A stretch of 64,000 nt of DNA. Origin: an uncultured Prolixibacteraceae bacterium. GTDB taxonomy: Bacteria > Bacteroidota > Bacteroidia > Bacteroidales > FEN-979. Where the stretch lies: contig CAZXQU010000005.1 of the NCBI GenBank assembly GCA_964642545.1, positions 1,669 through 65,668 of the forward strand, read 5' to 3'. Numbering within the stretch: position 1 is the first letter of the stretch; the number at the start of each line of letters is the position of its first letter. Made by a program: the position numbers and the translations under genes. The notes under the pieces were generated by a model that saw nothing but the letters and a program-made list of their open reading frames with translations, ran no database searches and had not been told where the DNA came from. Below, one piece after another: positions 14,967 to 29,746 of the stretch.

Positions 14967-14974
14967 TAATTTTG
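14967..14974 (+). promoter_or_regulatory. -7 box TAatTTTG for the 1290-aa sensor/PPDK_N gene
   Basis: Exact motif 24 nt upstream of the ATG at 14998. Confidence 0.45.
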
Positions 14975-14997
14975 GCACGACCATCCCCCATTTTAGC

Positions 14998-17900
14998 ATG
15001 CCAGGTAAGGACGAAAGAAAACGTGCAGGAAGAACTCCTGTCAACTCGAACGACGTTGAGAAACTCCTGCTGGATAATCGCGAAAGGCTCAAAGAACTTA
15101 CAGCGATTAACCATACCACGGCAATACTCAAGGAAAATAAGTCGATCCCTGATACGCTAACCCGAATTTGCCAGATTCTTCCAAAAGCATGGCAGTACCC
15201 AAAATATACTGTCATTCGTATCAGGTTTGATGAGATGGAGTTTACAAACAACAACTTCCGGGAAACTGCATGGAAGCAAGAGCAGGTATTTGAGACCATC
15301 GACAACCTGGTAGGCTCTCTGGAGGTCTTCTATGTGAAGGAGTTTCCGAAAGCATATGAAGGTCCTTTTCTGAAAGAGGAGCGCAACCTGATCAATACTC
15401 TCACCAGTTTAATTGAGGGTTACCTGAACGCCATCAAGGGGAAAGAAGGGAGGTATGTGACCACCGAAAGGCTGAAAGAGTTATCGGCGATAAATCAAAC
15501 CACCAGTATTCTCAGAACAGGAGCACCGCCCGATGAAGCACTGCATCAGATCTGTATGATTATTTCCAGGGCATGGCAGTATCCCGAATTTGCGGTTTGT
15601 AAGATCAAACACGGAAATATTGAAGTCCAAAGCCCCAATTTTCGCGAGACCCAATGGAGGCAACTACAGGTTTTTGAGACGATTGACAACCAGACCGGAT
15701 CTATTGAGATCTGCTATATAAAAGCATTCCCACAAGCGTTTGAAGGCCCTTTTCTGGAAGAAGAACGCGATCTGATCATCAACCTCTCCAACCTGATTGC
15801 AGGATATCTCAACTCTATCAAGGGAAAGGCAATCCTGAAAAAGAGCACACCCCATGCCGAGGAACCGGATAACGCCGATCGGGGAGGTGTTGATGGACAT
15901 TATAGCCGGCGACTCCTGCAGTCGTTCCTCAACCGAACAAACAACAACCGGGATATCTATCACGACCTGATGCCATTCAAGGTAAGGGAGATTCTGTTGG
16001 TTGCCAATCTGTATGATGCCTATAGCATAGAAAAAGAGGGACGGTTCTCGGAACATGTGTTGGGGCAGTTTTACCAGCTAAGCCTTAGCACGATGCCTCG
16101 AATCACCGGAGTCTCCTCCATCGAGGAAGTAATGGAACAGCTTCGTTCTAAGCACTACGACCTGGTCATTATCATGATGGGAGTTGACAAGCAGTTTCCT
16201 ACCGAACTCAGCACTGCCATAAAAAATGAATTCCAATACATCCCTGTATTCATGCTGTTAAACAGCAATACCGACCTGGCTCAGCTTGAAAAGGAACCAG
16301 ATCGGCTAAACTGGATCGATCGTGTATTTGTGTGGAATGGAGATACCCGGATCTTTTTTGCTATGATCAACTACCTGGAAGACAAGATCAATGTAGAGAA
16401 TGATACAAGACTGGGTATGGTAAGGGTGATCTTGCTCGTGGAAGACTCACCACAATATTATTCGCTTTATCTCCCGATGCTCTATAACATCGTACTGGAG
16501 CAAACCAAACACATCATTGAGGATGTCACAACGGATGAGCTTTACCGAATTCTTCGCCTCAAGGCCCGCCCGAAAATCCTGCTGGCTTCTACCTACGAGG
16601 AGGCAATGTATATCTTCAATAAATACAAGGAGTTTATTCTCTGCCTCATCTCAGATGTCAAATTTAAAAAGGATGGTAAGCTCAATGAAAATGCAGGAAT
16701 CATGCTTGTCAACCAAACCCGGAAAGAGGCCCGTGAGTTGCCAATAGTACTACAGTCCTCTGATGATTCCAATGCAGCAAAAGCCTATCAATTAAAAGCT
16801 TCCTTTATCAATAAAAATTCAGAGACCCTGTTGGTTGACTTCAGGAGTTTCATTACCCACTATTTGGGGTTTGGGAACTTCATTTACCGCGATAACGAGG
16901 GAAAACAGATCGGACTGGCAAAGTCTCTCAAAGAGTTCGAAGACCGGCTGAAAACAATCCCCGAAGAGTCGCTTTTATACCATGCCCGGAAAGACCACTT
17001 CTCCCTGTGGCTGACAGCACGCGGAGAGATCCAGGCTGCTAAGATACTCAACCCGGCCAAAGTTACCGACTTCAAGGATGCTGCAAGCTTGCGTGAATAC
17101 CTCATCTCGGTCATCTCCCATTTCAGAAATGAACAGAGCCGTGGGAAGGTAATCCCGTTCGAAGAATCATCCATCACCGATGCCACCAACATTGTCAGCT
17201 TAACTGAAGGAGCTCTGGGAGGGAAAGGTCGGGGACTGGCGTTTGTCAATACTCTGATATACAACTATGACTTCTCCCGACATGTCCCGAACATCAATAT
17301 ACTGACTCCAACTACCTCCATCATTGGAACGGATGAGTTTGAGTACTTCCTTGACAGGAACCATCTCAGGGAGAGAGCTGTTCAGGAGAGTGACTACCAA
17401 ATTATCCGTAGTTGGTTTGTGGAGGGGAAACTCTCGGAAACTCTGATCCGTAAACTGAGATTGCTGATCAGGCATCTGAACAAGCCGCTTGCCATCCGCT
17501 CCTCCGGACTATTTGAAGACTCCCTGAACCAACCTTTTGCAGGCATTTTTGAAACGTACCTGATCCCCAATGATCATCCAGATTCCAAAGTTAGGCTGGA
17601 ACAACTGAAGGATGCCATCAAACTCGTTTATGCATCTGTTTACTCTCCCACAGCCAAAGGGTATATTGAGGCCGTCAACTACCGTATCGAACAGGAGAAG
17701 ATGGCTATTGTGATCCAGGAGGTGGTTGGGAGCCAGCACGAGGATGTTTTCTATCCCCATATCAGCGGAGTTGCACAGTCGTATAATTATTATCCTTATG
17801 CCCACATGAAGCCTGAAGAGGGATTTGCCGTGATCGCGTTGGGCTTGGGACGTTTTGTGGTGGAAGGAGAAAAGGCGTTCAGATTTTCACCACATTATCC

Positions 17901-18870
17901 CGACCTGGAGATCAATTCGGCTGAAGATCAGCTAAAGGGGAGCCAGGTTCACTTCTACGGTGTTGACCTGGCAAAGAGCGATGTGAATCTGCTGGAAGGC
18001 GAAGATGCCGGACTCAGAAAAATGTATATCGACGATGCAGAACGACATGGAACTCTAAGACACCTCGCCTCCGTCTTCAGTCCCGAGAACAACAGAATCA
18101 TCCCGGGGTTAAGTCACTCTGGCCCAAGAGTAATTAATTTCGCTGACATTCTTAAATACAATTATATCCCCCTGGCCAAAACTATTGATGTAGTGCTTGA
18201 TGTAGTTCAGGAGGCGATGGGATCACCCGTCGAAATTGAGTTTGCCGTTGATCTGAACAAAGACAAAGAGAACAAAGCATCATTTTACCTGCTTCAGATT
18301 AAACCTCTGATTGGGAATGCAACTGATTTTGTGATTGACATGAAATCGATATCCAACGAGGAGATCCTGCTTTATTCGGAAAAAGAGATGGGGAACGGAC
18401 TTGTCAGTGATATCCATGATGTGATATTTGTGGATCCCGATACCTTTGATAAAACCAAAACCATGGAGATGGCAGATGAGATGGGAAAGATCAATTCTGA
18501 GATGTTGCAGGAGAAAAGGAAGTACATCCTGATAGGTCCGGGAAGATGGGGGACACGTGACAAATGGATTGGGATTCCAATCTCCTGGCCCCAAATATCC
18601 AATGCCAAAGTGATTGTGGAAACCAGTTTGGAAGGATTTCCCCTTGATGCCTCATCAGGTTCGCATTTCTTCCACAATGTGACTTCGATGAACGTGGGTT
18701 ATTTCTGTGTTCAGCCCGAGCTCTCAAAGAGTTTCATCAGGTATGATGTCCTGAAGAGACAATCAAAAATAGTAAAAACAGAGTTTTTCTCCATCGCCCA
18801 CTTTAAGAAACCACTGACAATTCGGATGGATGGGAAAAAGCGAATTTCCGTAATTACATTTGAACAATAA
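14998..18870 (+). CDS. Multidomain protein: 2 tandem GAF-like sensor domains + pseudo-receiver + receiver + PPDK_N-type (PEP/pyruvate-binding, ATP-grasp) domain + conserved C-terminal module. Not a canonical dikinase.
   Basis: Receiver motifs ILLVEDS...LISDVKF...PIVLQSSD...FINK. ATP-grasp region GGKGRGLAFV...AIRSSGLFEDS...FAGIFETY...MAIVIQEVV. C-terminus GPGRWGTRDKWIGIPISWPQIS...SGSHFFHN. No GGxTSHAA-type phosphohistidine motif. Confidence 0.75.
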   Translation: MPGKDERKRAGRTPVNSNDVEKLLLDNRERLKELTAINHTTAILKENKSIPDTLTRICQILPKAWQYPKYTVIRIRFDEMEFTNNNFRETAWKQEQVFETIDNLVGSLEVFYVKEFPKAYEGPFLKEERNLINTLTSLIEGYLNAIKGKEGRYVTTERLKELSAINQTTSILRTGAPPDEALHQICMIISRAWQYPEFAVCKIKHGNIEVQSPNFRETQWRQLQVFETIDNQTGSIEICYIKAFPQAFEGPFLEEERDLIINLSNLIAGYLNSIKGKAILKKSTPHAEEPDNADRGGVDGHYSRRLLQSFLNRTNNNRDIYHDLMPFKVREILLVANLYDAYSIEKEGRFSEHVLGQFYQLSLSTMPRITGVSSIEEVMEQLRSKHYDLVIIMMGVDKQFPTELSTAIKNEFQYIPVFMLLNSNTDLAQLEKEPDRLNWIDRVFVWNGDTRIFFAMINYLEDKINVENDTRLGMVRVILLVEDSPQYYSLYLPMLYNIVLEQTKHIIEDVTTDELYRILRLKARPKILLASTYEEAMYIFNKYKEFILCLISDVKFKKDGKLNENAGIMLVNQTRKEARELPIVLQSSDDSNAAKAYQLKASFINKNSETLLVDFRSFITHYLGFGNFIYRDNEGKQIGLAKSLKEFEDRLKTIPEESLLYHARKDHFSLWLTARGEIQAAKILNPAKVTDFKDAASLREYLISVISHFRNEQSRGKVIPFEESSITDATNIVSLTEGALGGKGRGLAFVNTLIYNYDFSRHVPNINILTPTTSIIGTDEFEYFLDRNHLRERAVQESDYQIIRSWFVEGKLSETLIRKLRLLIRHLNKPLAIRSSGLFEDSLNQPFAGIFETYLIPNDHPDSKVRLEQLKDAIKLVYASVYSPTAKGYIEAVNYRIEQEKMAIVIQEVVGSQHEDVFYPHISGVAQSYNYYPYAHMKPEEGFAVIALGLGRFVVEGEKAFRFSPHYPDLEINSAEDQLKGSQVHFYGVDLAKSDVNLLEGEDAGLRKMYIDDAERHGTLRHLASVFSPENNRIIPGLSHSGPRVINFADILKYNYIPLAKTIDVVLDVVQEAMGSPVEIEFAVDLNKDKENKASFYLLQIKPLIGNATDFVIDMKSISNEEILLYSEKEMGNGLVSDIHDVIFVDPDTFDKTKTMEMADEMGKINSEMLQEKRKYILIGPGRWGTRDKWIGIPISWPQISNAKVIVETSLEGFPLDASSGSHFFHNVTSMNVGYFCVQPELSKSFIRYDVLKRQSKIVKTEFFSIAHFKKPLTIRMDGKKRISVITFEQ
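15085..15468 (+). other. GAF-like sensor repeat 1 (128 codons) inside the 1290-aa protein
   Basis: RLKELTAINHTTAIL...AWQYPKYTVIRIRF...NFRETAWKQEQVFETIDN..GSLEVFYVKEFPKAYEGPFLKEERNLINTL. Confidence 0.6.
15469..15828 (+). other. GAF-like sensor repeat 2 (120 codons), a tandem duplicate of repeat 1
   Basis: RLKELSAINQTTSIL...AWQYPEFAVCKIKH...NFRETQWRQLQVFETIDN..GSIEICYIKAFPQAFEGPFLEEERDLIINL. Colinear with repeat 1; roughly half the positions are identical by eye. Confidence 0.6.
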
Positions 18871-18882
18871 AAACAGATTTTT

Positions 18883-19401
18883 ATGCGAGTTGCAAGAATT
18901 TACAGAAAAGAGGTCGTCACTGATGCGGATGAGATCGATCTCACCTTACTCGATCCTCTGATCAATAAATACAAAGGCAAAAAGGGGAATGTCATCCCCC
19001 TTCTTCAGGGAGCCCAAGAGTTATATGGATTTATCCCCCGTGCAGTGTTTGATTGGATCTCGGCAGGAACCGGGCTTCCCCTTAGCGATATGTTCGGTGT
19101 TGCGACTTTCTATGCCCAGTTTCGCCTGAAGCCGGTGGGAAAGCACATCGTGAAGGTATGCCATGGTACTGCCTGTCATGTGCAGAATGCCAAAGAAATT
19201 ACTGAAGCGATTGAGGAAGCCCTCAAGGTCAAGGATGGGGAGACCACCGAAGACCGCCTCTTCACCCTCGAATCGGTAGCCTGCCTCGGTTGTTGCTCCC
19301 TCGCCCCGGTGATGATGATCGGCGACCAGACTTATGGCAAACTGACCGGAAATGAAGCGATCAAAGTGATCAAGAACATCAGACTGGCAGAGAAAAACTA
19401 G
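18883..19401 (+). CDS. NuoE/HydC-like [2Fe-2S] thioredoxin-fold subunit
   Basis: CHGTACH...CLGCCSLAPVMMI cysteine pattern of the NuoE family. Only 12 nt downstream of the preceding gene. Confidence 0.9.
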   Translation: MRVARIYRKEVVTDADEIDLTLLDPLINKYKGKKGNVIPLLQGAQELYGFIPRAVFDWISAGTGLPLSDMFGVATFYAQFRLKPVGKHIVKVCHGTACHVQNAKEITEAIEEALKVKDGETTEDRLFTLESVACLGCCSLAPVMMIGDQTYGKLTGNEAIKVIKNIRLAEKN

Positions 19402-19412
19402 TTGCTAGTCCA

Positions 19413-19455
19413 CAGTTTGCAGTCTGCAGTTTTTGTAATTCCTGCCAACTGCCAA
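19413..19455. repeat. Two adjacent heptamer arrays (cagtttg cagtctg cagtttt ... ctgccaa ctgccaa)
   Basis: Read directly, in the nuoE-like/nuoF-like spacer. The CTGCCAA unit recurs at 60618-60652. Confidence 0.7.
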
Positions 19456-19471
19456 CGAAGGACTTGTTAAA

Positions 19472-19511
19472 TAAAGAAACCAATATTAAAGAAACCAATA
19501 TTAAAGAAACC
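19472..19511. repeat. Perfect 15-nt tandem repeat taaagaaaccaatat, 2.7 copies
   Basis: Copies at 19472-19486 and 19487-19501, plus a partial copy at 19502-19511. Ends 4 nt before the ATG at 19516. Confidence 0.9.
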
Positions 19512-19515
19512 TCGT

Positions 19516-21291
19516 ATGAGTACTACCGTAACTGTCGGACTTGGAAGCTGCGGAATTGCTGCCGGCGCTAATAAAACCTATGAAAAGATCAAGGCCCTGA
19601 AGGAGAGCGAAAACCTCGACTTTGATCTCAAGAAAACTAGTTGCATCGGGATGTGCTACCGCGAACCTCTGGTAGAGATTGTTGACGATACCGGAACCTA
19701 TATTTATGGAGATGTAAATGCCGAGCGTGCAATCGAAGTCATTGAGAAACATGTCACCCAGCACGACCCGATTCGGGATTATATCGTATACACCGACCTT
19801 TTTGATGCACCCGAGAATAGCTTCATGAACTCACAGGTAAAGATCGTGTTGCGAAACTGTGGCTATATGGACCCTGAGTCGATTGATGAATACGAAGCCC
19901 GCGACGGATACAAGGCAATCAAAAAGATCACAGTGGAGAAGATTCCTGCCGATCAGGTCATCGAAACGATACTCAAATCGGGTCTTCGTGGCCGCGGTGG
20001 TGGTGGATTCCCTACTGGGCTGAAGTGGAAGTTTGCCAGAGCGAATAAATCCGATGAGAAATATGTGATTTGTAATGCCGACGAGGGCGACCCCGGAGCC
20101 TTTATGGATCGCAGCATCCTTGAAGGCGACCCGCACTCGGTTTTGGAAGGGATGATCATCGCAGCTTATAGCATTGGAGCCACAGGCGGGGTCATCTACT
20201 GCCGAGCCGAATACCCACTGGCAATCAAACGCCTCAATATCGCACTGGCTCAGGCCCGTAAACGGGGATACCTCGGGAAAGAGATTCTCGGCATCAAGGA
20301 TTTCAATTTCGATATTTATATCAAGGAGGGAGCCGGAGCATTTGTTTGCGGAGAAGAGACTGCCCTTATCGCCTCCGTTGAAGGAGAACGAGGGATGCCT
20401 CGTAAGCGGCCGCCATTTCCTGCCGAATCGGGATTGTGGCGTAAACCTACCAACATCAATAACGTAGAGACCTTAAACAACATCCCCTGGATTGTTTTGA
20501 ACGGAGCTGAAGCCTTTGCCAAATACGGGACAGAGAAGAGTAAGGGAACAAAAGTATTCGCCCTCGCCGGGAAGGTCAGGAATTCGGGATTGGTAGAGGT
20601 GCCAATGGGTATCACCATCAACGAAGTGATCATGAAACTCGGTGGTGGGATCAAGAACGACAAAAAGTTCAAGGCGGTTCAGTTGGGCGGTCCTTCGGGA
20701 GGCTGTATCCCACAGTATCTTTCAGAGACTATAGTGGATTACGACTCGGTAAATGCTACCGGGGCGATCATGGGATCAGGCGGGATGGTTGTGATGGACG
20801 AAAGTACCTGCATGGTCGATGTGGCTAAATTTTTCCTCGATTTCACCTGTAAAGAGTCTTGTGGAAAGTGTACTTTCTGCCGGGTTGGAACGGTAAGGAT
20901 GCTGGAAATCCTCGAACGCATCACCAACGGCGAAGGGCGCGAAGGGGATATAGAAAAGCTTGAGGAACTGGCATATGAGATCAAGGATAACTCTCTGTGC
21001 GGGCTCGGTCAAACAGCGCCTAATCCTGTACTCACTACCATCAAGTACTTCAGAGATGAATATGAAGCGCACATTGTCCATAAAAAATGCCCCGCGAAAG
21101 TGTGCCGTCCATTGCTGACTTACACCGTTGATCAGGAGAAATGTACCGGTTGCATGGTTTGTTTGAAAAACTGTCCGGCCAACGCCATTACAGGAGAGCG
21201 CAAGCAACCACACCTCATCAACCAGGATCTCTGCACTCAGTGCGGCGTGTGTTATACAAAATGTAAGTTCGACTCGATTATCCTGACATAA
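19516..21291 (+). CDS. NuoF/HydB-like NAD(H)- and FMN-binding subunit with N-terminal thioredoxin-like 2Fe-2S domain and C-terminal 2x[4Fe-4S] ferredoxin extension
   Basis: GLRGRGGGGFPTGLKWKF, ICNADEGDPGAFMDR and ESCGKCTFCR (N3 cluster), followed by CTGCMVCLKNCP...CTQCGVCYTKC. Confidence 0.9.
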   Translation: MSTTVTVGLGSCGIAAGANKTYEKIKALKESENLDFDLKKTSCIGMCYREPLVEIVDDTGTYIYGDVNAERAIEVIEKHVTQHDPIRDYIVYTDLFDAPENSFMNSQVKIVLRNCGYMDPESIDEYEARDGYKAIKKITVEKIPADQVIETILKSGLRGRGGGGFPTGLKWKFARANKSDEKYVICNADEGDPGAFMDRSILEGDPHSVLEGMIIAAYSIGATGGVIYCRAEYPLAIKRLNIALAQARKRGYLGKEILGIKDFNFDIYIKEGAGAFVCGEETALIASVEGERGMPRKRPPFPAESGLWRKPTNINNVETLNNIPWIVLNGAEAFAKYGTEKSKGTKVFALAGKVRNSGLVEVPMGITINEVIMKLGGGIKNDKKFKAVQLGGPSGGCIPQYLSETIVDYDSVNATGAIMGSGGMVVMDESTCMVDVAKFFLDFTCKESCGKCTFCRVGTVRMLEILERITNGEGREGDIEKLEELAYEIKDNSLCGLGQTAPNPVLTTIKYFRDEYEAHIVHKKCPAKVCRPLLTYTVDQEKCTGCMVCLKNCPANAITGERKQPHLINQDLCTQCGVCYTKCKFDSIILT

Positions 21292-21350
21292 CCCCTCCCC
21301 AACCCTCCCCTAAAGGGGAGGGAGTAAGTCCCCTTTAGGGGATTTAGGGG
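21290..21350. repeat. 61-nt double-hairpin REP-like element, copy A
   Basis: aacccctccccaaccctcccctaaaggggagggagtaagtcccctttaggggatttagggg. Stems are ccctcccc/ggggaggg (loop taaa) and tcccc/gggga (loop ttta). 59 of 61 positions match copy B at 42451-42511. Confidence 0.85.
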
Positions 21351-21387
21351 CAAAAAGAAACCACAAAACATCAAAAAAATCATTGTA

Positions 21388-24300
21388 ATGTCTGAACAAT
21401 CACTAAACATCATATTGGACGGAAAAATCGTTAAGGGAACCCCCGGCGAGACCATTCTGCAACTTGCCACACGAAATGGGATCGAGATCCCTACACTTTG
21501 CAATGATAACCGCCTCGAACCCTATTCCTCGTGTTTCGTCTGCGTTGTTGCTGTAGAGGGCATGAGGGGTCATCAGCCTTCCTGTTCCACACGGATTACG
21601 GAAGGGATGAAGATCACCACCTTCAACGAATCAATCCGAAAATCCCGTAAGATGGCGCTGGAGCTGATGCTGAGCAACCATTATGCCGACTGTATCGGGC
21701 CATGCAAGCAGACATGTCCGGCCGGTGTCGATGTACAGGGGTACATCTCACTGATCGAGAAAGGCAACTACTCAGATGCCATTGCCCTTATCAAGGAGAC
21801 TAATCCCTTACCCGCCATTTGTGGCCGTGTTTGTGTACGCCCGTGTGAAAAAGAGTGCCGCAGAAACCTGCTGGATGAAGGATCGCCCGTTGGTATTGAT
21901 TACCTGAAACGATTTGCAGCCGACTGGGATTTGGCATCCCCGGATAAATTTGTTCCCGACATCAAGCCCTCTACCGGGAAAAAGGTGGCTGTGATTGGTG
22001 CCGGGCCGGGAGGATTGTCCGTTGGCTATTTCATGCAAATACAAGGGCATCAGGTGGATATCTTTGAAGCGGCTCCCCATCCGGGCGGATGGCTTCGTTA
22101 CGGAATTCCCGAATACAGACTGCCTAACGACATCCTGGATCAGGAGGTGAAAAATATTACCGATCTCGGTGTTCAGATCTTCTATAACAAGAAGCTGGGT
22201 GAAAATCTGAGTTACAAGGAGATTGCTGAAAAATACGATGCCACAGTTCTTACTATCGGTTCGCAGATCGGAACCGGGGTTGGATGCGAGGGTGATGATG
22301 CCGGGAATGTTTTTTCGGGGATCGACTTCCTGAAGAACATGGAGGTAACCGAACAACATTATGACTTCAGCGGAAAGACTATAGCCGTGGTTGGTGGCGG
22401 AAATACAGCTATGGACTGCTGCCGTACCTCCATCAGGTGTCATGCCGATAAAGTTTATGTGATCTACCGTCGAACGGAAAAGGAGATGCCTGCCAACCCG
22501 ATTGAGATCCATGAATCGAAATTGGAAGGAGTAGAGTACCTGTTCCTGACCCTTCCACAGAAGATCAACAAAAATGCAAAGGGAGAGGTCGAGACAGTTA
22601 CTTGTATCCGGATGGAATTGGGTGAACCCGATGCTTCTGGCCGTCGTCGGCCGGTTCCCATAGAGGGTTCCGAATTTGATATCAAGGTGGACTACATCCT
22701 GGCTGCCATAGGGCAGAAGACCGATGTAAACTGCATCGACGACATCAATACTACTACTTCAACCGGAGAACTGAAGATCAATAAATGGGGCGATATCGAT
22801 GCCGACCGGAATACACTTCAAACAGGCATTCCATCGGTGTTTGCCGCTGGTGACGGGGTTACCGGACCGGCAACCATCATTGAAGCGATAGCCCAGGCAC
22901 GCGTAGCGGCACACAGTGCGAACCAATACCTCATGGGAGAGGAGATTACACCGGGTAACAAGCCATTTACAAGCAAGCGCGAGAATTTTAAAAAGCAGGT
23001 CAAGGAGGATTTTCTTGGGGCCTTTGACAGCCAGATAAGGGAAGAGATGCCGGTACTGGATGCTGATCAGCGGATGAATTTCGATGAAGTGGAACTCGGT
23101 TACGCCGGGGAAGAGGTTGCACTGCATGAAACCCAGCGTTGCCTAGAATGTGGTTGTAATGCCTTTTTCGATTGTGACCTCCAGCAATATTCTACAGATT
23201 ACAATGCTGATCAAAAGGGATTTGCCGGGGCATATAAGGAGTACCAAGTTGACTTCCGTCATCCCTATATCGAAATCGACAATAACAAATGTATCCTTTG
23301 CTCACGCTGTGTCCGCATTTGCCGTGAAGTGGTTGGCGCCAATGCCCTGGGTCTCGTTAACCGGGGATTTGAAACCTACGTCTCACCAAGTATGGGAGAT
23401 TCTCTCCAGGATACCTACTGCGAATCATGCGGGATGTGTATCTCGACATGTCCAACCGGAGCCATTAGTGAAAATGTGCTCTTCAAACCAGGGCCGGTAC
23501 GCACCACCGCTGCCGAAACCATTTGCAACTACTGTTCGATTGGTTGTTCATTAAACCTGAATCACCTGAACGGTTTCGTGATGAATGTGACAGGAACCAC
23601 CGGATTGGTTAATGAAAAAGGAAATATCTGCCGGTTCCCCCGGTTTGGATACTCCTATCTGAACGATAGAAACCGCATCATCTCTCCTATGAAACGGGTC
23701 AATAGAAAATTTGAAAAGATCACCTTTGAGGAGGCGTTCAGGATCATGTTTGAGAAAATCAGATCGGTAGATCCGGATGATAATGTTTTTTTTGCGGGAG
23801 CACGGCTAACCAATGAAGAACTTTACCTGGTCCAAAAGCTGGCCCGCGCTGGTGCCAAGACCGGAAATATCGGAAGTTTCCATTACCTTAGTAGATGGCA
23901 GGCTTACCGAATGGATGAATCGATGAACACCTCATTTGGTGAGATTGATCAGGCCTCCAAAATTTTCTTGGTTGGTTCAGAAATAAACAGAGATAATGCT
24001 GTTGCAGGATTCATGGTCAGCAATGCCCGTGCAATGAAACATATTCCTGTAGTACTTGTTACAACCCGGGAAGAGAATGCCATGGCCCATAAAGTAGACA
24101 AGATTATCGAGGTAAAATCATACTACTACTTCACTAAAGCCGTAAATCATTTTCTCTTGACAAACAAGATGGAAAATACACTGTTCCTGCGTGATAGGGT
24201 GGATGGCTTGAGTGAATACAAAGAGCAGATGGCAACCGAGGATTATCCTGCACTGTTAGCTAATGCCGGAATAACGGCTGAGGTGGTAAAAAACTTTGCT

Positions 24301-25101
24301 GAAGAGTACAACAATGAGTTGAACGGGATTATCCTCTATTCTGAAAAGGAGGTTTCCGGCAATGGCGCCATCGCCCTGATGAATTTGGCTATGATCACCG
24401 GGAAACTTGGAAAAACCGCCAACGGGTTGATTGTCCTGAAAGAGAAGAATAACGCACAGGGGCTGTTCGACATGGGTATCAACCGGAAGTATGGCGTAGG
24501 GGGCAGGAGCCTGACTGATACAGCCTACCTGAAACACCTCATGGAAGCCTGGAAGGTTGATTCAATACCGGGTCCTGATCTTGTATGCCTCAAAACGAAC
24601 CTCACGCTAGGGAAGATCAAAAACATCTTTATCTTTGGGGAAGATCCCGTGGGATGCGACATTACCGGATCCTATTCCACATTGATTGAACAAATCCCGT
24701 TCAAAGTAGTTCAGGATTATTTCATGACGGATACGGCGAAGATGGCCGACCTGATTCTGCCAGCTTCATTCCCAACGGAAATTGGGGGCACCTTCTCCAA
24801 TACACAGAAGGTAATCCTGGAGTTTGACAAGGTTTTGCCTTCCCGTTTGGCGATGGATTCCATTCAGCAGCTCATCAAGACCCTGAAACGTTTCGGGTTG
24901 AATGGAGTGGAGAGCAGGGAGGATGTTTTCTCTGAGATCATCCAGCTGCTGCCGCAAACGGAGGAGGAGATGCCGGTTGAGAAACTCTCGCTGACGTACA
25001 GCGTTGACGATAATCCCAACCGTGCCTTTAACTTCGGATGCGACTACCTTGTGAAGCGATTTGAAGAGGAGTTTGAAAACCGAATGAAAAATGGAAATTA
25101 G
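21388..25101 (+). CDS. 1237-aa fusion subunit: N-terminal plant-type 2Fe-2S, then a GltD/NfnB-like FeS + FAD/NAD(P)H module, then NuoG/FdhA-type FeS cluster domains, then a truncated degenerate molybdopterin-oxidoreductase-like domain
   Basis: LNIILDGKIV..IEIPTLC..SCFVCVV. CPAGVDVQGYI..ETNPLPAICGRVCVRPCEKEC. KVAVIGAGPGGLSVGY...AVVGGGNTAMDC. CILCSRCVRIC, CESCGMCISTCP, CNYCSIGCSL. No Cys/Sec-His active-site motif and no C-terminal molybdopterin-binding barrel. Confidence 0.85.
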   Translation: MSEQSLNIILDGKIVKGTPGETILQLATRNGIEIPTLCNDNRLEPYSSCFVCVVAVEGMRGHQPSCSTRITEGMKITTFNESIRKSRKMALELMLSNHYADCIGPCKQTCPAGVDVQGYISLIEKGNYSDAIALIKETNPLPAICGRVCVRPCEKECRRNLLDEGSPVGIDYLKRFAADWDLASPDKFVPDIKPSTGKKVAVIGAGPGGLSVGYFMQIQGHQVDIFEAAPHPGGWLRYGIPEYRLPNDILDQEVKNITDLGVQIFYNKKLGENLSYKEIAEKYDATVLTIGSQIGTGVGCEGDDAGNVFSGIDFLKNMEVTEQHYDFSGKTIAVVGGGNTAMDCCRTSIRCHADKVYVIYRRTEKEMPANPIEIHESKLEGVEYLFLTLPQKINKNAKGEVETVTCIRMELGEPDASGRRRPVPIEGSEFDIKVDYILAAIGQKTDVNCIDDINTTTSTGELKINKWGDIDADRNTLQTGIPSVFAAGDGVTGPATIIEAIAQARVAAHSANQYLMGEEITPGNKPFTSKRENFKKQVKEDFLGAFDSQIREEMPVLDADQRMNFDEVELGYAGEEVALHETQRCLECGCNAFFDCDLQQYSTDYNADQKGFAGAYKEYQVDFRHPYIEIDNNKCILCSRCVRICREVVGANALGLVNRGFETYVSPSMGDSLQDTYCESCGMCISTCPTGAISENVLFKPGPVRTTAAETICNYCSIGCSLNLNHLNGFVMNVTGTTGLVNEKGNICRFPRFGYSYLNDRNRIISPMKRVNRKFEKITFEEAFRIMFEKIRSVDPDDNVFFAGARLTNEELYLVQKLARAGAKTGNIGSFHYLSRWQAYRMDESMNTSFGEIDQASKIFLVGSEINRDNAVAGFMVSNARAMKHIPVVLVTTREENAMAHKVDKIIEVKSYYYFTKAVNHFLLTNKMENTLFLRDRVDGLSEYKEQMATEDYPALLANAGITAEVVKNFAEEYNNELNGIILYSEKEVSGNGAIALMNLAMITGKLGKTANGLIVLKEKNNAQGLFDMGINRKYGVGGRSLTDTAYLKHLMEAWKVDSIPGPDLVCLKTNLTLGKIKNIFIFGEDPVGCDITGSYSTLIEQIPFKVVQDYFMTDTAKMADLILPASFPTEIGGTFSNTQKVILEFDKVLPSRLAMDSIQQLIKTLKRFGLNGVESREDVFSEIIQLLPQTEEEMPVEKLSLTYSVDDNPNRAFNFGCDYLVKRFEEEFENRMKNGN

Positions 25102-25134
25102 GAAATTAGGAAACTAGGAAATTAGGAAAATAGG
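25093..25134. repeat. 8-nt array, 5 units (ggaaatta ggaaatta ggaaacta ggaaatta ggaaaata)
   Basis: Read directly. Contains the last two codons and the TAG stop (25099-25101) of the 1237-aa gene. Confidence 0.85.
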
Positions 25135-25149
25135 TTATTTAAGTTTTAC

Positions 25150-25178
25150 ATGAAACCTGAAACCCTGAAACCTGAAAC
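25150..25178. repeat. 7-8 nt array, 4 units (atgaaac ctgaaac cctgaaac ctgaaac)
   Basis: Read directly, 10 nt upstream of the rubrerythrin-like ATG. Confidence 0.8.
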
Positions 25179-25187
25179 AAACCAAAT

Positions 25188-25643
25188 ATGATCGAATTTA
25201 ACAACATCAGCGATGTTCTCGATTTTGCGATCGGGGAGGAACAGGCAGCTGTAGAGTTTTACCTGAAACTGGCAGAATTGTCGAAAAATGAACAGGTTCA
25301 AAAAATCTTCTATGATTTTGCCGAAGAGGAGATGAAGCACAAGGCGAAATTAATAGAGGTGAAGATCAATGGTGCAACGGTGTTTGGGAACATTCCCATT
25401 GTTGACATGAAATTAGCGGATTACCTGGTAGATGTAAAAGCAACACCAGATATGTCATACGAGAAAGCCCTGATACTGGCAATGAAAAAGGAGAAGGCTG
25501 CTTTCAAGCTCTATACTGCATTGGCCGACCGTGCCAAACAACCGGAGATGCAGGAGATGTTCCGTCATCTGGCGATGGAAGAGTCAAAACACAAGATGCA
25601 GTTTGAAATTGAGTACGACGACTATATCCTGAGGGAAAATTAA
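25188..25643 (+). CDS. Rubrerythrin/ferritin-like di-iron four-helix-bundle protein (no rubredoxin domain)
   Basis: Two E-x-x-H motifs (AEEEMKHK and AMEESKHK) plus upstream Glu residues, in a 151-aa helical protein. Confidence 0.8.
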   Translation: MIEFNNISDVLDFAIGEEQAAVEFYLKLAELSKNEQVQKIFYDFAEEEMKHKAKLIEVKINGATVFGNIPIVDMKLADYLVDVKATPDMSYEKALILAMKKEKAAFKLYTALADRAKQPEMQEMFRHLAMEESKHKMQFEIEYDDYILREN

Positions 25644-25931
25644 GAGATATACTCCATGATCCCGAAGTAGATATGCCACGCCAGCTCCTTCTGAAACTCA
25701 GGATCTTTGTCTTTGTCCCCATCTGAGAAATCATATCGCAGCTTAAGGCTTAGGTTGTTATAAAGGAGCTCTACTTTAATTGCAATCATCTCTGCAAGTC
25801 GGTCTGACTTGGTTGTTCCCTTTGTTATGTATATCTCGAACCCTCTGGCCTGGCTGTTAAATGCATTTGAGTGGATGGAGATAAAATCTTCATTATCTTT
25901 GAATCCGCAGGAGAGAAAATTAGATCGTAAT
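25640..25931 (-). pseudogene. Remnant of an Amidase_3-type N-acetylmuramoyl-L-alanine amidase (C-terminal part only, apparent internal deletion, no start codon)
   Basis: Minus-strand frame reads ...DFISIHSNAFNSQARGFEIYITKGTTKSDRLAEMIAIKVE...LKLRYDFSDGDKDKDPEFQKELAWHIYFGIMEYIS*. An in-frame stop lies upstream at 25932-25934, and the N-terminal zinc-ligand half is missing. Confidence 0.45.
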
Positions 25932-25935
25932 CAAG

Positions 25936-28917
25936 ATGACAGAGAAGGCCAAAACAAGATCAATACTGGATCATAAAAAGTACTATTTCGCTGATACACA
26001 GTTCAACCTGATGATGGAGAAGCGAATTTACCAGATTCTGCTGATCTCAAGTACGTACGATGCCTTTATGCTGGAAGAGGATGGCCGTATTGATGAACAG
26101 ATCTTCATGGAGTATGTCTCCCTGAACCTACGGTACCCCCCACAGTTTATCAAGGTAACATCTGAAGAGGAGGCCTTTGCCGTATTGGAAGACAAACATG
26201 TGGAGCTGATTATTTCGATGCTAAGCATTGAGAAATCAGATACATTCGACCTCGCTCTTCGGATTAAAGAGAAGTACGCAAAGATCCCGATCGTTGCTCT
26301 AACGCCTTTTTCCCGAGAATCTAGCCTGAAATTAACCCAGAAAGACCTGAGTGCTATTGATTATGTCTTCTCCTGGTTGGGGAATGCTGATATCATGTTG
26401 GCGATCATCAAGTTGATTGAGGATAAAATGAATATTGATCAGGATGTCAGGCAGGGAGTGCAGGCAATCTTGCTGGTTGAGGACTCCATCCGGTTCTATT
26501 CAAGTTACCTTCCTAACATCTATAAAATCATCTTCAAACAATCCAAGGCATTTATGGCAGAAGGGTTGAATGAACACCAGAAGATGCTCAGAATGAGGGG
26601 TCGGGCTAAAATATTGTTGGCAACGAATTATGAGGAGGCAGTGGAGTTATGGGAAAAGTACCACCATAATTTGCTTGGAATTATTACCGATATCAGTTTT
26701 AAACGCCAGGGAGAAACGGATAAAACAGCTGGGATCAAGTTTGTAAAGAAGATTCGATCAGAAGATGAGTTTATGCCGGTCCTGTTTCAGTCTTCCGATG
26801 CAGAATACAAGGAAGTAGCACACCAGATGAGAGTGGGTTTTGTTAATAAAGTTTCCAAAACCCTTTCAATGGAGTTGCGAAATTATATTAACGAGCACTT
26901 CTCCTTTGGTGATTTTGTTTTCATTGACCCCAAAAATGGCCGGGAGATAAGCCGCGTGGCTGATTTGCGAACGATGCAGGAACGTATCTTTGAAATCCCC
27001 GACGACTCGCTACTCTATCTCATGCAGCGAAATAGGTTTTCTAAATGGCTAAACGCTAGGGCATTATTTCCGATAGCGGAATTGTTCGCCGAAGGATCTG
27101 TTTCCCACTTTCAAGATATGGATGAAGCCAAACGCTACATCTACGACTCAATTAAAGCTTTCAGGATCAATAAGGCGAGAGGAGTCATTGCTGATTTCGA
27201 TCGGGAACGATACGATGAATTCCTCCATTTCGGCCGGATTGGAGAGGGGTCAATTGGTGGGAAAGCAAGAGGTTTGGCTTTTCTCGACTCGTTGATTAAA
27301 CGTAACAGGTTAGCCGATAAATACAATGGGGTGACCATTTCGATTCCGCGTACGGTAGTGATTGGAACTGATATCTTTGATGAATTCATGGAGGAGAACA
27401 ATTTATATGAGATTGCTTTGTCGAATCGCAGTGACAGAGAAATTCTGGATCATTTTGTTGCCGCCCGGTTGCCATTCAGGATCCACGAAGATCTCTATAC
27501 CTTTATCACCTGCATCCGTAACCCTGTGGCAATCAGGTCCTCTTCTTTACTTGAAGATTCCCACTACCAGCCATTTGCCGGGATCTATTCGACATATATG
27601 ATTCCGAATATCCGGTTCAACGACCGGTTAATGATTGAGAAGCTGAGTGAAGCAGTCAAAAGCGTTTATGCATCTACCTTCTTCCATGACAGCAAAGCAT
27701 ACATGGCCGCAACGTTGAATATGATTGATGAGGAGAAGATGGCGATTGTTCTTCAGGAGGTTACCGGCAAGCAGTATGGTAACCGTTTTTATCCTACGAT
27801 TTCAGGTGTCGCCCGATCGATCAACTTTTATCCTATCGCACCTGAGGAGCCGGGAGATGGCATTGCAAATATTGCTTTTGGACTTGGAAAGTATATTGTC
27901 GATGGCGGAAACGGTATCAGATTCTCTCCGCGTTACCCGAAAAAAATATTACAACTCTCCACTCCTGAGTTGGCACTTACTGAAACCCAGAAAACCTTTT
28001 ATGCATTGGATTTGAATCCTGACAGTTTCCATGCTGATTGTGATGAGACGATCAATTTACTTAAACTTAAAGTCAAAGATGCCGAGAGCGATCCTGTGTT
28101 GAAACTGGTGGCATCAACCTACGATTACAACGCACACTCACTTCGGGATGGCATGCTGGCATCCGGGAAACGGTTGATTACCTTCTCAAATATTCTGACA
28201 CACGACACATTCCCTCTGGCAAAGATTCTACAAGAGATTTTAGAGATTGGACAAAAGGAGATGAGTAAACCGGTGGAGATTGAGTTTGCAGTGAATCTAG
28301 ATGTTCCAAAAGGGGAACCACGACTGTTTAGCATCCTTCAGATCCGTCCGATTGCCGGGCGTGATGAAACCCTTCACCTCGATCCCAAAACGATAGAGCA
28401 GGATGAGACTATCCTAATCTCAAATGCAGCATTGGGCAATGGGATTATCAATGATATCTCAGACATTGTTTACATCAAGCCTGAAGTTTTTGATGCTTCA
28501 AAAAGTATGCAGTTCGCGGCTCAGTTGGAGAAAATCAATGATCGTTTTCTGGAGGATAAAAAAAACTACATTCTGATTGGCCCTGGCCGTTGGGGTTCCA
28601 GTGATCCCTGGCTTGGCATTCCCATCCGATGGCCACAGATCTCTGCTGCCCGACTCATTGTGGAGTCAAGCCTGGAAAACTACCGGATCGATCCCAGTCA
28701 GGGAACACACTTCTTCCAGAATCTAACCTCTTTCCGGGTCGGATATTTCACAATCAACTCATTTATTGGAGAGGGTTCATACAATATCGGTTTCCTGAAC
28801 AGCCAGCCCGCATTATGGGAGAATGAGTTCATCAGGCACGTTCGGTTTGAGACAAATTGCAAAATTGCCCTGGATGGAAAAAAGAGCTTTGGGGTGGTAT
28901 TCAAGCCAATCCTATGA
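25936..28917 (+). CDS. Paralog of 14998-18870 without the GAF pair: pseudo-receiver + receiver + PPDK_N-type ATP-grasp + conserved C-terminal module
   Basis: ILLVEDS...IITDISF...PVLFQSSD...FVNK. GGKARGLAFL...AIRSSSLLEDS...FAGIYSTY...MAIVLQEVT. GPGRWGSSDPWLGIPIRWPQIS...SQGTHFFQN. Colinear with the first paralog. Confidence 0.75.
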   Translation: MTEKAKTRSILDHKKYYFADTQFNLMMEKRIYQILLISSTYDAFMLEEDGRIDEQIFMEYVSLNLRYPPQFIKVTSEEEAFAVLEDKHVELIISMLSIEKSDTFDLALRIKEKYAKIPIVALTPFSRESSLKLTQKDLSAIDYVFSWLGNADIMLAIIKLIEDKMNIDQDVRQGVQAILLVEDSIRFYSSYLPNIYKIIFKQSKAFMAEGLNEHQKMLRMRGRAKILLATNYEEAVELWEKYHHNLLGIITDISFKRQGETDKTAGIKFVKKIRSEDEFMPVLFQSSDAEYKEVAHQMRVGFVNKVSKTLSMELRNYINEHFSFGDFVFIDPKNGREISRVADLRTMQERIFEIPDDSLLYLMQRNRFSKWLNARALFPIAELFAEGSVSHFQDMDEAKRYIYDSIKAFRINKARGVIADFDRERYDEFLHFGRIGEGSIGGKARGLAFLDSLIKRNRLADKYNGVTISIPRTVVIGTDIFDEFMEENNLYEIALSNRSDREILDHFVAARLPFRIHEDLYTFITCIRNPVAIRSSSLLEDSHYQPFAGIYSTYMIPNIRFNDRLMIEKLSEAVKSVYASTFFHDSKAYMAATLNMIDEEKMAIVLQEVTGKQYGNRFYPTISGVARSINFYPIAPEEPGDGIANIAFGLGKYIVDGGNGIRFSPRYPKKILQLSTPELALTETQKTFYALDLNPDSFHADCDETINLLKLKVKDAESDPVLKLVASTYDYNAHSLRDGMLASGKRLITFSNILTHDTFPLAKILQEILEIGQKEMSKPVEIEFAVNLDVPKGEPRLFSILQIRPIAGRDETLHLDPKTIEQDETILISNAALGNGIINDISDIVYIKPEVFDASKSMQFAAQLEKINDRFLEDKKNYILIGPGRWGSSDPWLGIPIRWPQISAARLIVESSLENYRIDPSQGTHFFQNLTSFRVGYFTINSFIGEGSYNIGFLNSQPALWENEFIRHVRFETNCKIALDGKKSFGVVFKPIL

Positions 28918-28987
28918 ATGTTTAAAAAAAATTAAATCCAACGTATAACCTTTTGCCCCTTAACCGGATTAATGGCTAAAAAAAGCC

Positions 28988-29551
28988 ATGAAAACAACAA
29001 TTCTGGAGCCGGGTAAATTTTATCACATTTATAATCGGGCCAAAAACGGGAACCCATTATTCCCCGAAGACGAAGACATCCAGTTCTTCCTGAAACTCTA
29101 CAAAACACACATCGTCCCTGTTGCGGAGACTTGGGCATACTGTATCCTCGACGACCATGTCCATTTTCTGGTTAGATTAAAAGAGGATCTGAATGGCAAT
29201 GCATACAAACCATTTGCGTTGCTCTTCAACTCCTACGCTAAGGGCTATCACAAGAAAAACGGAAGTGAGGGAAAACTTTTCAAATTCAAACTCAAGCGTG
29301 TTGAGATCCACAGAGAAACGGTCTTACGGGATGTGATCCGTTACATCAACCAAAATGCCCGCAAACATGGGTTGGTTGAGGATTGTTCCCGGTACAGGTA
29401 CTCCTCCTTTCGCGCTACTGTCACCACCTGGCCTACTTTGATTCCTAAGGAAGAGATTCTCAGGCGATTTGGCAATAGGGAGATGTTATCTCATATCCTG
29501 GCCGAACCAGTGAAGGAGAAAGGGTTGAAGATGTACCTGCTTGAAGAATGA
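28988..29551 (+). CDS. HUH/Y1 transposase of the IS200/IS605 TnpA - REP-associated tyrosine transposase (RAYT) type
   Basis: GKFYHIYNRAKNGNPLF, HUH motif DDHVHFLV, and catalytic-Tyr helix VIRYINQNARKHGLV. Confidence 0.8.
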   Translation: MKTTILEPGKFYHIYNRAKNGNPLFPEDEDIQFFLKLYKTHIVPVAETWAYCILDDHVHFLVRLKEDLNGNAYKPFALLFNSYAKGYHKKNGSEGKLFKFKLKRVEIHRETVLRDVIRYINQNARKHGLVEDCSRYRYSSFRATVTTWPTLIPKEEILRRFGNREMLSHILAEPVKEKGLKMYLLEE

Positions 29552-29570
29552 CGAATTACGAATTACGAAT
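29543..29570. repeat. Heptamer array, 4 units (gaagaat gacgaat tacgaat tacgaat)
   Basis: Read directly. Contains the transposase TGA stop (29549-29551). The same word family occurs at 508-549 and, as reverse complement, at 37181-37208. Confidence 0.8.
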
Positions 29571-29653
29571 GAGGGATGTGTTGATAGGATTATAGGTTGG
29601 TCTCAAGAAAGGAAGCGACAGCTCTGAGGCAGGATCTGCAGGTTTCAGTATAG

Positions 29654-29746
29654 TCAATATTCTTTGCCATAGGTAGCGAGAATCGATTGGGCGCAGTTGT
29701 ATCCCTGTTTGAATTGATCCATGGTTTCTTCCGTTCTGTTTTGCAT
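29654..29746 (-). pseudogene. Truncated remnant of a C_GCAxxG_C_C-family gene (first 30 codons only)
   Basis: MQNRTEETMDQFKQGYNCAQSILATYGKEY* matches the family N-terminus (GYNCAQS). Downstream frames are broken. Confidence 0.35.

Follow-up and report, generated by a model that had tools for sequence, protein, structure and literature searches.

We analyzed a 64,000-nucleotide stretch (the window) of contig CAZXQU010000005.1 from an uncultured Prolixibacteraceae bacterium (GenBank assembly GCA_964642545.1), in which three genes on the same strand, here called stnA, stnB, and stnC, encode a NuoE-like subunit, a NuoF-like subunit, and a large subunit of 1237 amino acids (aa). The intergenic gaps are 114 and 96 nt. 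A preliminary description, made from the letters alone, had singled out the large subunit as an unusual protein, with a whole GltD/NfnB-like NAD(P)H module placed between the 2Fe-2S and FeS domains of a NuoG/FdhA-like protein whose molybdopterin domain looked catalytically dead. The open reading frame (ORF) and all the motifs quoted there are present in the translation, and the NuoE/NuoF partners it mentioned lie directly upstream (Table 1).

Table 1. Genes and domains at the stn locus, as positions in the window; the domains of the large subunit are listed below stnC
Feature	Coordinates	Strand	Remarks
Polysaccharide biosynthesis block	9709..13335	+	
NADP-specific glutamate dehydrogenase (GDH)	13382..14737	-	NCBIfam NF006929, 766.6 bits vs cutoff 536
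PPDK_N-domain protein with receiver-like domains	14998..18870	+	1290 aa; Pfam PPDK_N, E 3.4e-38
stnA / nfnC (BfuC)	18883..19401	+	NuoE-like subunit, 172 aa; [2Fe-2S] cluster "C1" of the bifurcating site
stnB / nfnB (BfuB)	19516..21291	+	NuoF-like FMN/NAD(H) subunit, 591 aa
stnC / nfnA (BfuA)	21388..25101	+	Large subunit, 1237 aa, ATG start
N-terminal plant-type [2Fe-2S] domain	21397..21627	+	Residues 4-80; Pfam Fer2_4, E 5.9e-17; ligands C38, C49, C52, C66
H98-x3-C102-x3-C106-x3-C110-P	21679..21717	+	First half of the split His-ligated 4Fe-4S motif, then start of the inserted module
GltD/NfnL-like FAD + NADPH insert	21694..23148	+	Residues 103-587; Pfam Fer4_20 (104-182), Pyr_redox_2 (198-504)
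C585-x2-C588-x-C590-x5-C596	23140..23175	+	Other half of the NuoG-type cluster motif divided by the insert, with extra Cys
Ferredoxin-like 2x[4Fe-4S] domain	23263..23466	+	Residues 626-693; Pfam Fer4_Nqo3, E 1.4e-10; C635/638/641/645, C678/681/684/688
Molybdop_Fe4S4-type cluster	23512..23664	+	Residues 709-759; Pfam PF04879; C713, C716, C720, C748
Fdh-like domains II/III, without active site	23674..24957	+	Molybdopterin PF00384 at residues 763-1153
C-terminal tail	24958..25101	+	47 residues + stop codon, poorly conserved; not an MGD barrel; no Pfam match
Ferritin-like/rubrerythrin-domain diiron protein	25188..25643	+	151 aa; Pfam Rubrerythrin, E 9e-15
PPDK_N/receiver paralog	25936..28917	+	993 aa
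187-aa ORF	28988..29551	+	
905-aa ORF	29752..32469	-	
Class II fumarase/aspartase-type lyase	32469..34319	-	

The Pfam layout of the large subunit agrees with the domain order given in the preliminary description, namely, a 2Fe-2S domain, a GltD/NfnB-like NADPH module, NuoG-type FeS motifs, and a molybdopterin-oxidoreductase-like region (below, the Fdh-like region). As had also been stated, it gave no match to the H-cluster domain of [FeFe]-hydrogenases in the Pfam scan. There are sites for one 2Fe-2S and six 4Fe-4S clusters, with 28 Cys, H98, and K174 placed as in StnC and NfnA, the large subunits of the structurally solved enzymes StnABC from Sporomusa ovata and NfnABC from Caldicellulosiruptor saccharolyticus. 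We tabulated conservation in 82 sequences of the surrounding clade and in 96 representatives of the wider family, leaving the four 2Fe-2S Cys out of the second tabulation. Within the clade, none of the 28 cluster Cys, which include 2Fe-2S ligands C38, C49, C52, and C66, varies apart from the Molybdop_Fe4S4 set, absent from 2 of the 82 sequences. Among the family representatives, the four Molybdop_Fe4S4 Cys are kept in 90 to 91 and just 49 have Cys at residue 145; the other tabulated sites show little or no variation. By region, the 2x[4Fe-4S] domain is the most conserved within the clade (86% mean identity, 47% invariant columns), followed by the GltD module (79% and 33%). The Fdh-like region evolves fastest (52% and 8%) except for the C-terminal tail (41% and 4%).

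The GltD-like insert matches the free-standing NfnB (4ylf_B; E value of 2.4e-100) and NfnL (5jca_L; 3.2e-82) in the PDB. It carries C145, C149, C153, and C157, Lys residue K174, the FAD motif G204-x-G206-x-x-G209, and R237. The NADPH-binding signature expected of such a module is present as G336-x-G338-x-x-A341 (G336-G-G-N-T-A341) together with Y360-R361-R362; GxGxxA was read as the NADPH signature in StnABC as well (PMC7483475). The FAD motif, GxGxxA, and YRR are invariant in the clade and found in 94 to 96 of the 96 family representatives. K174, the equivalent of StnC K170, a Lys ligand of the FAD-proximal 4Fe-4S cluster, is conserved in 82/82 and 96/96 sequences, and R237 (StnC R239) in 82/82 and 91/96.

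Residues 116 (21733..21735) and 145 (21820..21822) of the large subunit showed a pattern of their own. Cys116 occurs in 12 of the 96 representatives and Cys145 in 49, with both in none, in a count uncorrected for phylogeny, and the sulfur near the Lys-ligated cluster may come from either position. The protein studied here has Val at position 116. We rejected this Val as a clade-specific feature, since V or I is the majority state at this position across the 96 representatives, and V/I in homologs was already noted by Kumar et al.

Where exactly the GltD module sits became clear from the NuoG His-cluster profile NADH-G_4Fe-4S_3 (PF10588). In the intact protein, only profile positions 1-16 of 40 match, at residues 87-102, with 18.8 bits, below the cutoff of 27. 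After in silico deletion of residues 103-587, the profile was regained over positions 1-37 of 40 with 38.0 bits. By profile and motif, the module is therefore placed inside the His-ligated 4Fe-4S motif, with H98-x3-C102 before the insert and C590-x5-C596-D-L-Q after it. Thus, the insertion reported in the preliminary description stands, while its position "between" the 2Fe-2S and FeS domains needs to be narrowed to a site within a cluster motif, which is a modest new point. The first half agrees with the HxxxCxxxCxxxCP motif of Kremp et al. (PMC7483475); it is invariant in the clade, and among the 96 family representatives H98, C102, and C110 never vary, and position 106 departs from Cys in a single sequence. 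The second half, of the CxxCxC...C type noted for StnC and NsoC (PMC7483475), is invariant across both the 82 clade and the 96 family sequences.

In the PDB, the large subunit is most similar to C. saccharolyticus NfnA (9bov_A, 1178 aa; E value of 8.8e-233 over query residues 8-1033 and 1073-1189) and next to S. ovata StnC (8oh5_C, 1172 aa; 1.5e-216), and its match to archaeal NfnA (9n5u_A; 1.8e-184) extends only to query residue 819. Sequence identity over about 860 aligned columns is 44.0% to C. saccharolyticus NfnA and 41.5% to StnC, within the range of 33-49% spanned by the "potential Stn" homologs of Kremp et al. (PMC7483475), and by region it is higher in the GltD module (48-49%) than in the Fdh-like part (29-33%). 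The published layout of StnC consists of a 2Fe-2S domain (1-101), a GltD domain (102-565), NuoG FeS clusters, and an inactive FdhF-like domain (683-1172) (PMC10482914), and C. saccharolyticus NfnA was described with the same domain order (PMC11829005). Cryo-electron microscopy (cryo-EM) structures exist for both complexes, and both papers call the Fdh-like domain noncatalytic (PMC10482914, PMC11829005).

The two partner subunits give the same picture. StnA matches Pfam 2Fe-2S_thioredx (3e-49) and has 9bov_C (3.9e-57), 8oh5_A, and 9n5u_C (7e-49) as its best PDB matches; its 2Fe-2S ligands C93, C98, C134, and C138 are the same in all of 75 relatives compared. StnB contains Complex1_51K, SLBB, NADH_4Fe-4S, and two Fer4 domains besides an N-terminal 2Fe-2S_thioredx remnant, and its best PDB match is S. 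ovata StnB (8oh5_B; 5.3e-266 over residues 5-589), followed by 9n5u_B (7e-261) and 9bov_B. The Cys of its N-terminal thioredoxin-like metal site (C12, C43, and C47), of the B1 4Fe-4S cluster (C449, C452, C455, and C495), and of the C-terminal 2x[4Fe-4S] domain on the ferredoxin side (B3/B4, residues 536-589; two CxxCxxCxxxC motifs, C543-C583) are all invariant in 77 relatives. According to Schut et al. (PMC9304861), the N-terminal site and B3/B4 separate bifurcating Bfu enzymes from nonbifurcating NuoF homologs.

As all three proteins find their best PDB matches in StnABC (8oh5) and NfnABC (9bov and 9n5u), the likeness to Stn/Bfu-type transhydrogenases raised in the preliminary description was borne out. 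Very probably, the genes at 18883..25101 specify an electron-bifurcating transhydrogenase of the StnABC/NfnABC type (Type 1 Nfn-Bfu) from an anaerobic Bacteroidota bacterium, with the 1237-aa protein as its large subunit (StnC = NfnA = BfuA). Enzymes of this kind (Nfn-Bfu) balance NADH, NADPH, and ferredoxin in anaerobes. The protein is an uncharacterized Bacteroidota member of a known, structurally solved enzyme family, and its architecture is already known. The domain order and degenerate Mo scaffold had been called unusual and distinctive. After comparison with the PDB, the literature, and a representative search, we rejected this reading, because the same order in published StnC (PMC10482914) and C. 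saccharolyticus NfnA (PMC11829005) makes it the defining architecture of StnC/NfnA. It is also common; in the search with residues 1-1200 as the query, at least 150 clusters at 50% identity matched with E values of 1.4e-159 or lower.

Three other assignments were considered and rejected. For the NuoG of respiratory complex I, TIGR01973 gave 257 bits against a cutoff of 470, and 485 residues separate the two halves of the His-cluster motif; no nuo membrane-subunit genes were found among the scanned neighbor genes of stnABC. The small subunit of glutamate synthase, GltD, was rejected with 629 bits for NF009454 (cutoff of 916) and 202 for TIGR01317 (cutoff of 448), and no GltB-like gene was found among the scanned flanking ORFs. 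In the case of classical NfnAB/NfnSL, the NfnB-like module is internal to the 1237-aa protein, while a free-standing NfnB has about 470 aa, and the partners are NuoE/NuoF-like and not of the FNR-like, 2Fe-2S NfnA/NfnS kind.

We aligned Escherichia coli FdhF to the 82-sequence clade alignment with MAFFT. Sec140 of FdhF falls on S835 (in the clade, G in 50, N in 25, and never Cys), His141 on R836 (R in 73), substrate-site Arg333 on K1018 (K in 72 and R in 9), and Lys44, located between the pterin and the FeS cluster, on F750 (Y in 61 and F in 15). The residues opposite Sec140-His141 are G/N/S and R/Q/G, with Cys or Sec at the ligand position in none of the 82 relatives. S835-R836 (23890..23895) lie inside FHYLSRWQAY, the very stretch named in the preliminary description. 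Separate HMMER alignments to five solved formate dehydrogenases (FDHs) showed S-R or a 7-residue gap opposite the U/C-H pair, so that neither of two independent alignments places a Cys/Sec-His there. FdhF could be aligned only to about residue 542 of 715, and the 1237-aa protein ends about 170 residues short of the FdhF end; domain IV therefore has no counterpart, and Pfam found no match to Molydop_binding (PF01568), the C-terminal molybdopterin guanine dinucleotide (MGD)-binding domain IV, anywhere in the protein. As the preliminary description had it, the molybdopterin-oxidoreductase-like region is, on these alignments, catalytically dead, with no MGD barrel, and the search for an intact Cys/Sec site left its degenerate-scaffold reading standing.

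In an AlphaFold2 model of residues 700-1237 (pLDDT of 84.3, pTM of 0.85), the predicted Fdh-like fold was confirmed. Foldseek gave query-normalized TM-scores (TMq) of about 0.8 to FDHs. For FdhH (1fdi), TMq was 0.81 and the target-normalized score (TMt) was 0.62, in keeping with domain IV at the end of the target being unmatched. TMq was 0.76 for C. saccharolyticus NfnA (9bov_A) and 0.74 for StnC (8oh5_C).

Several observations could nevertheless be taken to mean that an FDH is encoded here. PF00384 and PF04879 are both present in the large subunit, its C-terminal part matches real FDHs with E values of 1e-46 to 1e-38, and source databases label relatives "formate dehydrogenase major subunit" or "molybdopterin-dependent oxidoreductase." CARxCH and PF01568 are also found intact in the family, the protein P0178 being one case, but the CARxCH-intact relatives are 130 to 350 aa longer. 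Biochemistry on the solved enzymes argues against formate oxidation as well. StnABC showed no formate:methyl viologen activity (PMC7483475), the FdhF-like domain of StnC "is catalytically inactive" (PMC10482914), and in C. saccharolyticus NfnABC, which contains neither Mo nor W, Fe and Zn were the only significant metals (PMC11829005). By analogy, the Fdh-like domain here would be free of metal.

The Molybdop_Fe4S4 ligands C713, C716, C720, and C748 align to FdhF C8, C11, C15, and C42, and by analogy with StnC, whose C1/C2 clusters were reported to be off-path (PMC10482914), the Molybdop_Fe4S4 cluster probably lies off the main electron path. In two stnC homologs, L068 and L077, all four of these Cys are replaced (D/G/F/S) with every other cluster site kept; this joint loss fits an off-path cluster. 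The natural loss contrasts with S. ovata, where the two clusters off the electron path are needed for tetramer assembly and Cys-to-Ala mutants of them failed to assemble (PMC10482914).

Compared with the characterized systems, the differences are all minor. With StnABC of S. ovata (Sporomusa-type Nfn; PDB 8oh5/8oh9; Kremp 2020, PMC7483475; Kumar 2023, PMC10482914), the locus shares the gene order NuoE-like, NuoF-like, and large subunit. Their large subunits share the order 2Fe-2S, HxxxCxxxCxxxCP, GltD, CxxCxC..C, 2x[4Fe-4S], Molybdop_Fe4S4, and an inactive, barrel-less FdhF-like domain. Residues K170 and R239 and the GxGxxA motif of StnC correspond to K174, R237, and G336-A341 here. Identity to StnC is about 41.5% overall and about 29% in the Fdh-like part. 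The protein here is 65 residues longer than StnC (59 to 65 longer than StnC/NfnA) owing to an insertion at about 1033-1073 and the 47-residue tail. StnC C114 is replaced by Val116 and Ile143 by Cys145. S. ovata belongs to the Bacillota, whereas the genomes here are Bacteroidota and nonacetogenic, and the S. ovata stn neighbors are metVF/pabAB instead of the GDH, ferritin-like, and PPDK_N genes.

NfnABC of C. saccharolyticus (Type 1 Nfn-Bfu; PDB 9bov/9bp5; PMC11829005) has the same domains and provides the best PDB match for both the large and the NuoE-like subunits. The three Cys of the N-terminal site in the NuoF-like subunit here recall the 3Cys+Glu Zn site B5 of that enzyme. C. saccharolyticus NfnA differs in having Cys at the V116 position and Ile at the C145 position, and its host is a thermophilic Firmicute; its metal content and tetramer are known. 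The archaeal Nfn-Bfu/NsoABC of Thermococcus (PDB 9n5u; PMC12018979, PMC9304861) has the same BC core and the same layout of 2Fe-2S domain and GltD insert up to about residue 819. Its large subunit, however, has 963 aa, about 270 fewer than here, and is without one cluster and most of the Fdh-like domain, of which the protein here retains the full bacterial-type domains II/III. Classical NfnAB/NfnSL (4ylf, 5jca) contains a homolog of the insert with the same FAD/NADPH fold and catalyzes the same net reaction, but the operon here has no NfnA/NfnS-type partner, and Stn/Bfu enzymes bifurcate at the FMN core of the NuoF/NuoE-like subunits, not at the FAD of the GltD module (PMC10482914).

A further group sheds light on the origin of the dead domain. 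Six representatives (P0178, P0200, P0202, P0214, P0243, and P0258), at 31-37% identity, share the N-terminal half, H98, K174, and CxxCxC..C with the protein here and look like GltD-inserted, apparently intact FDHs; they keep CARxCH and have 1365 to 1589 aa. One of them, P0178 (locus L085, 848..4969), has PF01568, and no NuoE/NuoF gene was found within its available flank (848 nt upstream and 8 kb downstream). These proteins may be intact NADPH-linked FDHs, representing ancestors of the Stn-type subunit. Their features suggest that the Stn-type large subunit descended from a GltD-inserted FDH in which the active site and domain IV were subsequently lost.

Electron flow in the complex can be proposed from the homologous solved enzymes as follows. 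NADPH would donate a hydride to the FAD of the inserted GltD/NfnL-like module, and single electrons would leave through the Lys/Cys-ligated 4Fe-4S cluster beside the FAD (K174 + Cys). They would then travel along the FeS cluster chain of the NuoG-like part, the N-terminal 2Fe-2S cluster included, to the NuoF/NuoE-like core. There, the B1-FMN-C1 "flavobicluster" would bifurcate them, with NAD+ reduced at the FMN and ferredoxin reduced via C1 and the C-terminal 2x[4Fe-4S] clusters B3/B4 of StnB, and NAD(H) binding would trigger accompanying conformational changes (PMC11829005, PMC10482914). The reaction should be reversible and in vivo would most likely run as NADH + reduced ferredoxin + 2 NADP+ -> 2 NADPH, supplying NADPH to biosynthesis, including ammonium assimilation by the adjacent NADP-specific GDH. 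It is this GDH that makes the NADPH-forming direction and a role in feeding ammonium assimilation plausible, on the basis of synteny. The Fdh-like region is best seen as a cofactor-less FDH relic, which by analogy would serve as a scaffold for oligomerization and NuoE docking and hold one or two clusters outside the electron path. In S. ovata and C. saccharolyticus, the complexes are tetramers of heterotrimers joined via the large subunit (PMC10482914, PMC11829005), and we infer a comparable activity and oligomeric state here.

We investigated how widely such loci are distributed. In the protein database, there are at least 120 full-length relatives with 67-90% identity, all of about 1235 aa and, where sources are named, from Bacteroidales/Bacteroidota metagenome-assembled genomes (MAGs). 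Among contigs of one genome per species, 286 loci encode a relative, and the best 80 of these (60-87% identity) belong almost entirely to MAGs of Bacteroidales (including Prolixibacteraceae, Draconibacterium, and Lentimicrobiaceae), Ignavibacteria, and Chlorobiota, the closest genomes being Prolixibacteraceae/Bacteroidales MAGs. The stnA-stnB-stnC set is conserved across these 80. Among 50%-identity representatives, 5864 proteins matched at E values of 1e-30 or lower; all of the best 150 reached the threshold given above, and most of these have 1000-1400 aa. Schut et al. 2022 (PMC9304861) already noted that the Nfn-associated BfuB is "also in Synergistetes and Bacteroidetes." Beyond this passing mention, we found no paper characterizing a Bacteroidota Stn/NfnABC in the literature on Bacteroidales, Bacteroidota, and Ignavibacteria.

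Gene neighborhoods were counted in related loci with enough flank. Directly upstream of stnC, stnB is found in 77/77 loci, and stnA is upstream in 68/69. Further out, the divergent GDH gene has the same position and orientation, upstream on the opposite strand, in 27/57 loci. GDH is a likely NADPH consumer, and its conservation here suggests a link between NADPH supply and use. The 1290-aa PPDK_N gene is present upstream in 35/60 loci and the 993-aa PPDK_N/receiver gene downstream in 22/50. Their products flank the stn genes as paralogs (38% identical over 968 aa), each with receiver-like domains and a PPDK_N domain, the nucleotide-binding domain of phosphoenolpyruvate (PEP) synthase/PPDK. The swivel-His (PEP-utilizers) domain was not detected in either paralog, and the 1290-aa protein gave no PDB sequence match at E values of 0.001 or lower. 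As the 1290-aa gene ends 12 nt before stnA, it is probably cotranscribed with stnA. A scan of 14600..29700 for sigma-70 promoters and intrinsic terminators gave counts at or below the shuffled expectation, with Bacteroidota promoters not covered by the scan. In 46/69 loci, spread over Bacteroidales, Ignavibacteria, and Chlorobiota, the next gene after stnC on its strand is the one for the 151-aa ferritin-like protein, at a median distance of 33 nt. The protein has two E-x-x-H motifs, no rubredoxin domain, and weak PDB matches to 2fzf and 1vjx. A 44%-identical stnABC locus from a different lineage lacks the gene, so the association is clade specific. The clade-specific synteny, comprising the GDH gene, the ferritin-like gene, and the two PPDK_N/receiver paralogs, is another modest new point.

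Farther from the stn genes, the window contains a 187-aa ORF whose match to REP-associated tyrosine transposases (NF047646) stays, at 51 bits, below the cutoff of 80; homologs of this ORF occur near the stn cluster in several related loci. The 905-aa ORF has no Pfam match at E values of 1e-5 or lower and has homologs with 45-50% identity in a few related loci. In the class II fumarase/aspartase-type lyase (Lyase_1 + FumaraseC_C), a cyclic-nucleotide-binding domain is fused to the N terminus, which is unusual. Upstream of the GDH gene, the polysaccharide biosynthesis block comprises two group-1 glycosyltransferases and a Wzy/O-antigen-ligase-like protein.

Some points weigh against the assignment as a StnABC/NfnABC-type transhydrogenase. 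Identity to the characterized enzymes is moderate, with only 29-33% in the Fdh-like part, and this domain is as close in sequence to genuine FDHs (E value of 2.5e-46) as to StnC/NfnA (about 1e-39). Several motifs typical of domains II/III are kept, and a residual ligand-binding role is possible. StnC C114, mutation of which halves activity, is Val here (V116). For the enzymes of the Bacteroidota/Ignavibacteria clade, the physiological direction and ferredoxin partner are inferred. Finally, the conserved ferritin-like and PPDK_N/receiver neighbors are unexplained by a StnABC function.

These neighbors are the ground for an alternative in which a Stn-type core has acquired a clade-specific extra function, with the ferritin-like protein drawing electrons for peroxide or O2 detoxification or the PPDK_N/receiver proteins regulating or modifying the complex. 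Besides the conserved gene order described above, it draws on the off-path clusters of the Fdh-like domain, which have no assigned partner, and on an existing NCBIfam model for a fusion of GltD-like and ferritin domains (NF009413), to which the match is weak. The ferritin-like gene beside stnC also recalls the "Rub-Bfu" predicted by Schut et al. from a rubrerythrin gene adjoining BfuB (PMC9304861). However, its basis is synteny, the ferritin-like gene is missing in about a third of the loci as well as in the 44%-identical locus, its product has no rubredoxin domain or obvious docking motif, and the Molybdop_Fe4S4 cluster has been lost altogether in two lineages. We regard this extended reading as unlikely. 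The chance is equally slim that the ferritin-like diiron protein is a fourth, clade-specific Stn partner in Bacteroidota, Ignavibacteria, and Chlorobiota, accepting electrons, e.g., through the dead-end clusters of the Fdh-like domain; were it so, the outcome would be a NAD(P)H/ferredoxin-driven peroxide or O2 reductase function comparable to that of the predicted Rub-Bfu. Control of the complex might lie with the PPDK_N/receiver paralogs on either side, again judging by synteny.

Another alternative is a nonbifurcating NADPH-dependent reductase, acting on sulfur or polysulfide as first reported for archaeal Nso, on Fe(III) like SfrAB, or as the electron-input subunit of a glutamate synthase. 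The best NCBIfam model for the large subunit is indeed "putative NADPH-dependent glutamate synthase small subunit" (NF009454), Kremp et al. cited NsoC (40.6% identical to StnC) and SfrA/SfrB as relatives, and isolated StnC with NADPH reduces artificial acceptors (PMC7483475). But the NF009454 score is below its cutoff, a glutamate synthase would call for a GltB-like gene among the scanned operon neighbors, where there is none, and the three stn genes are invariably linked, with NuoF/NuoE partners that keep all Bfu-specific sites. In addition, later work established that the archaeal homolog is a bifurcating Nfn with tight coupling (PMC9304861). A nonbifurcating reductase is accordingly improbable. 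A functional NAD(P)H-linked, possibly bifurcating FDH, or another Mo/W-bis-pyranopterin guanine dinucleotide oxidoreductase, with a merely misaligned active site was rejected as highly improbable on the mapping of FdhF Sec140, His141, Arg333, and Lys44 and the absent domain IV.

For enzymology, a StnABC/NfnABC-type transhydrogenase at this locus brings nothing new, as its architecture, dead Fdh-like domain, and mechanism are documented by three cryo-EM studies, and the only leads beyond the literature are the pairing with an NADP-specific GDH and the unexplained ferritin-like and PPDK_N/receiver neighbors. The practical value of the assignment is correct annotation, which matters for metabolic models. 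For genes annotated "FAD-dependent oxidoreductase," "molybdopterin-dependent oxidoreductase," or "formate dehydrogenase major subunit," it offers a concrete and testable function, which would be the supply of NADPH from NADH and ferredoxin by electron bifurcation, in a gene set that many uncultured anaerobes of the Bacteroidales, Ignavibacteria, and Chlorobiota carry. In metabolic models of such fermenters, formate oxidation should not be credited from the stnC gene.

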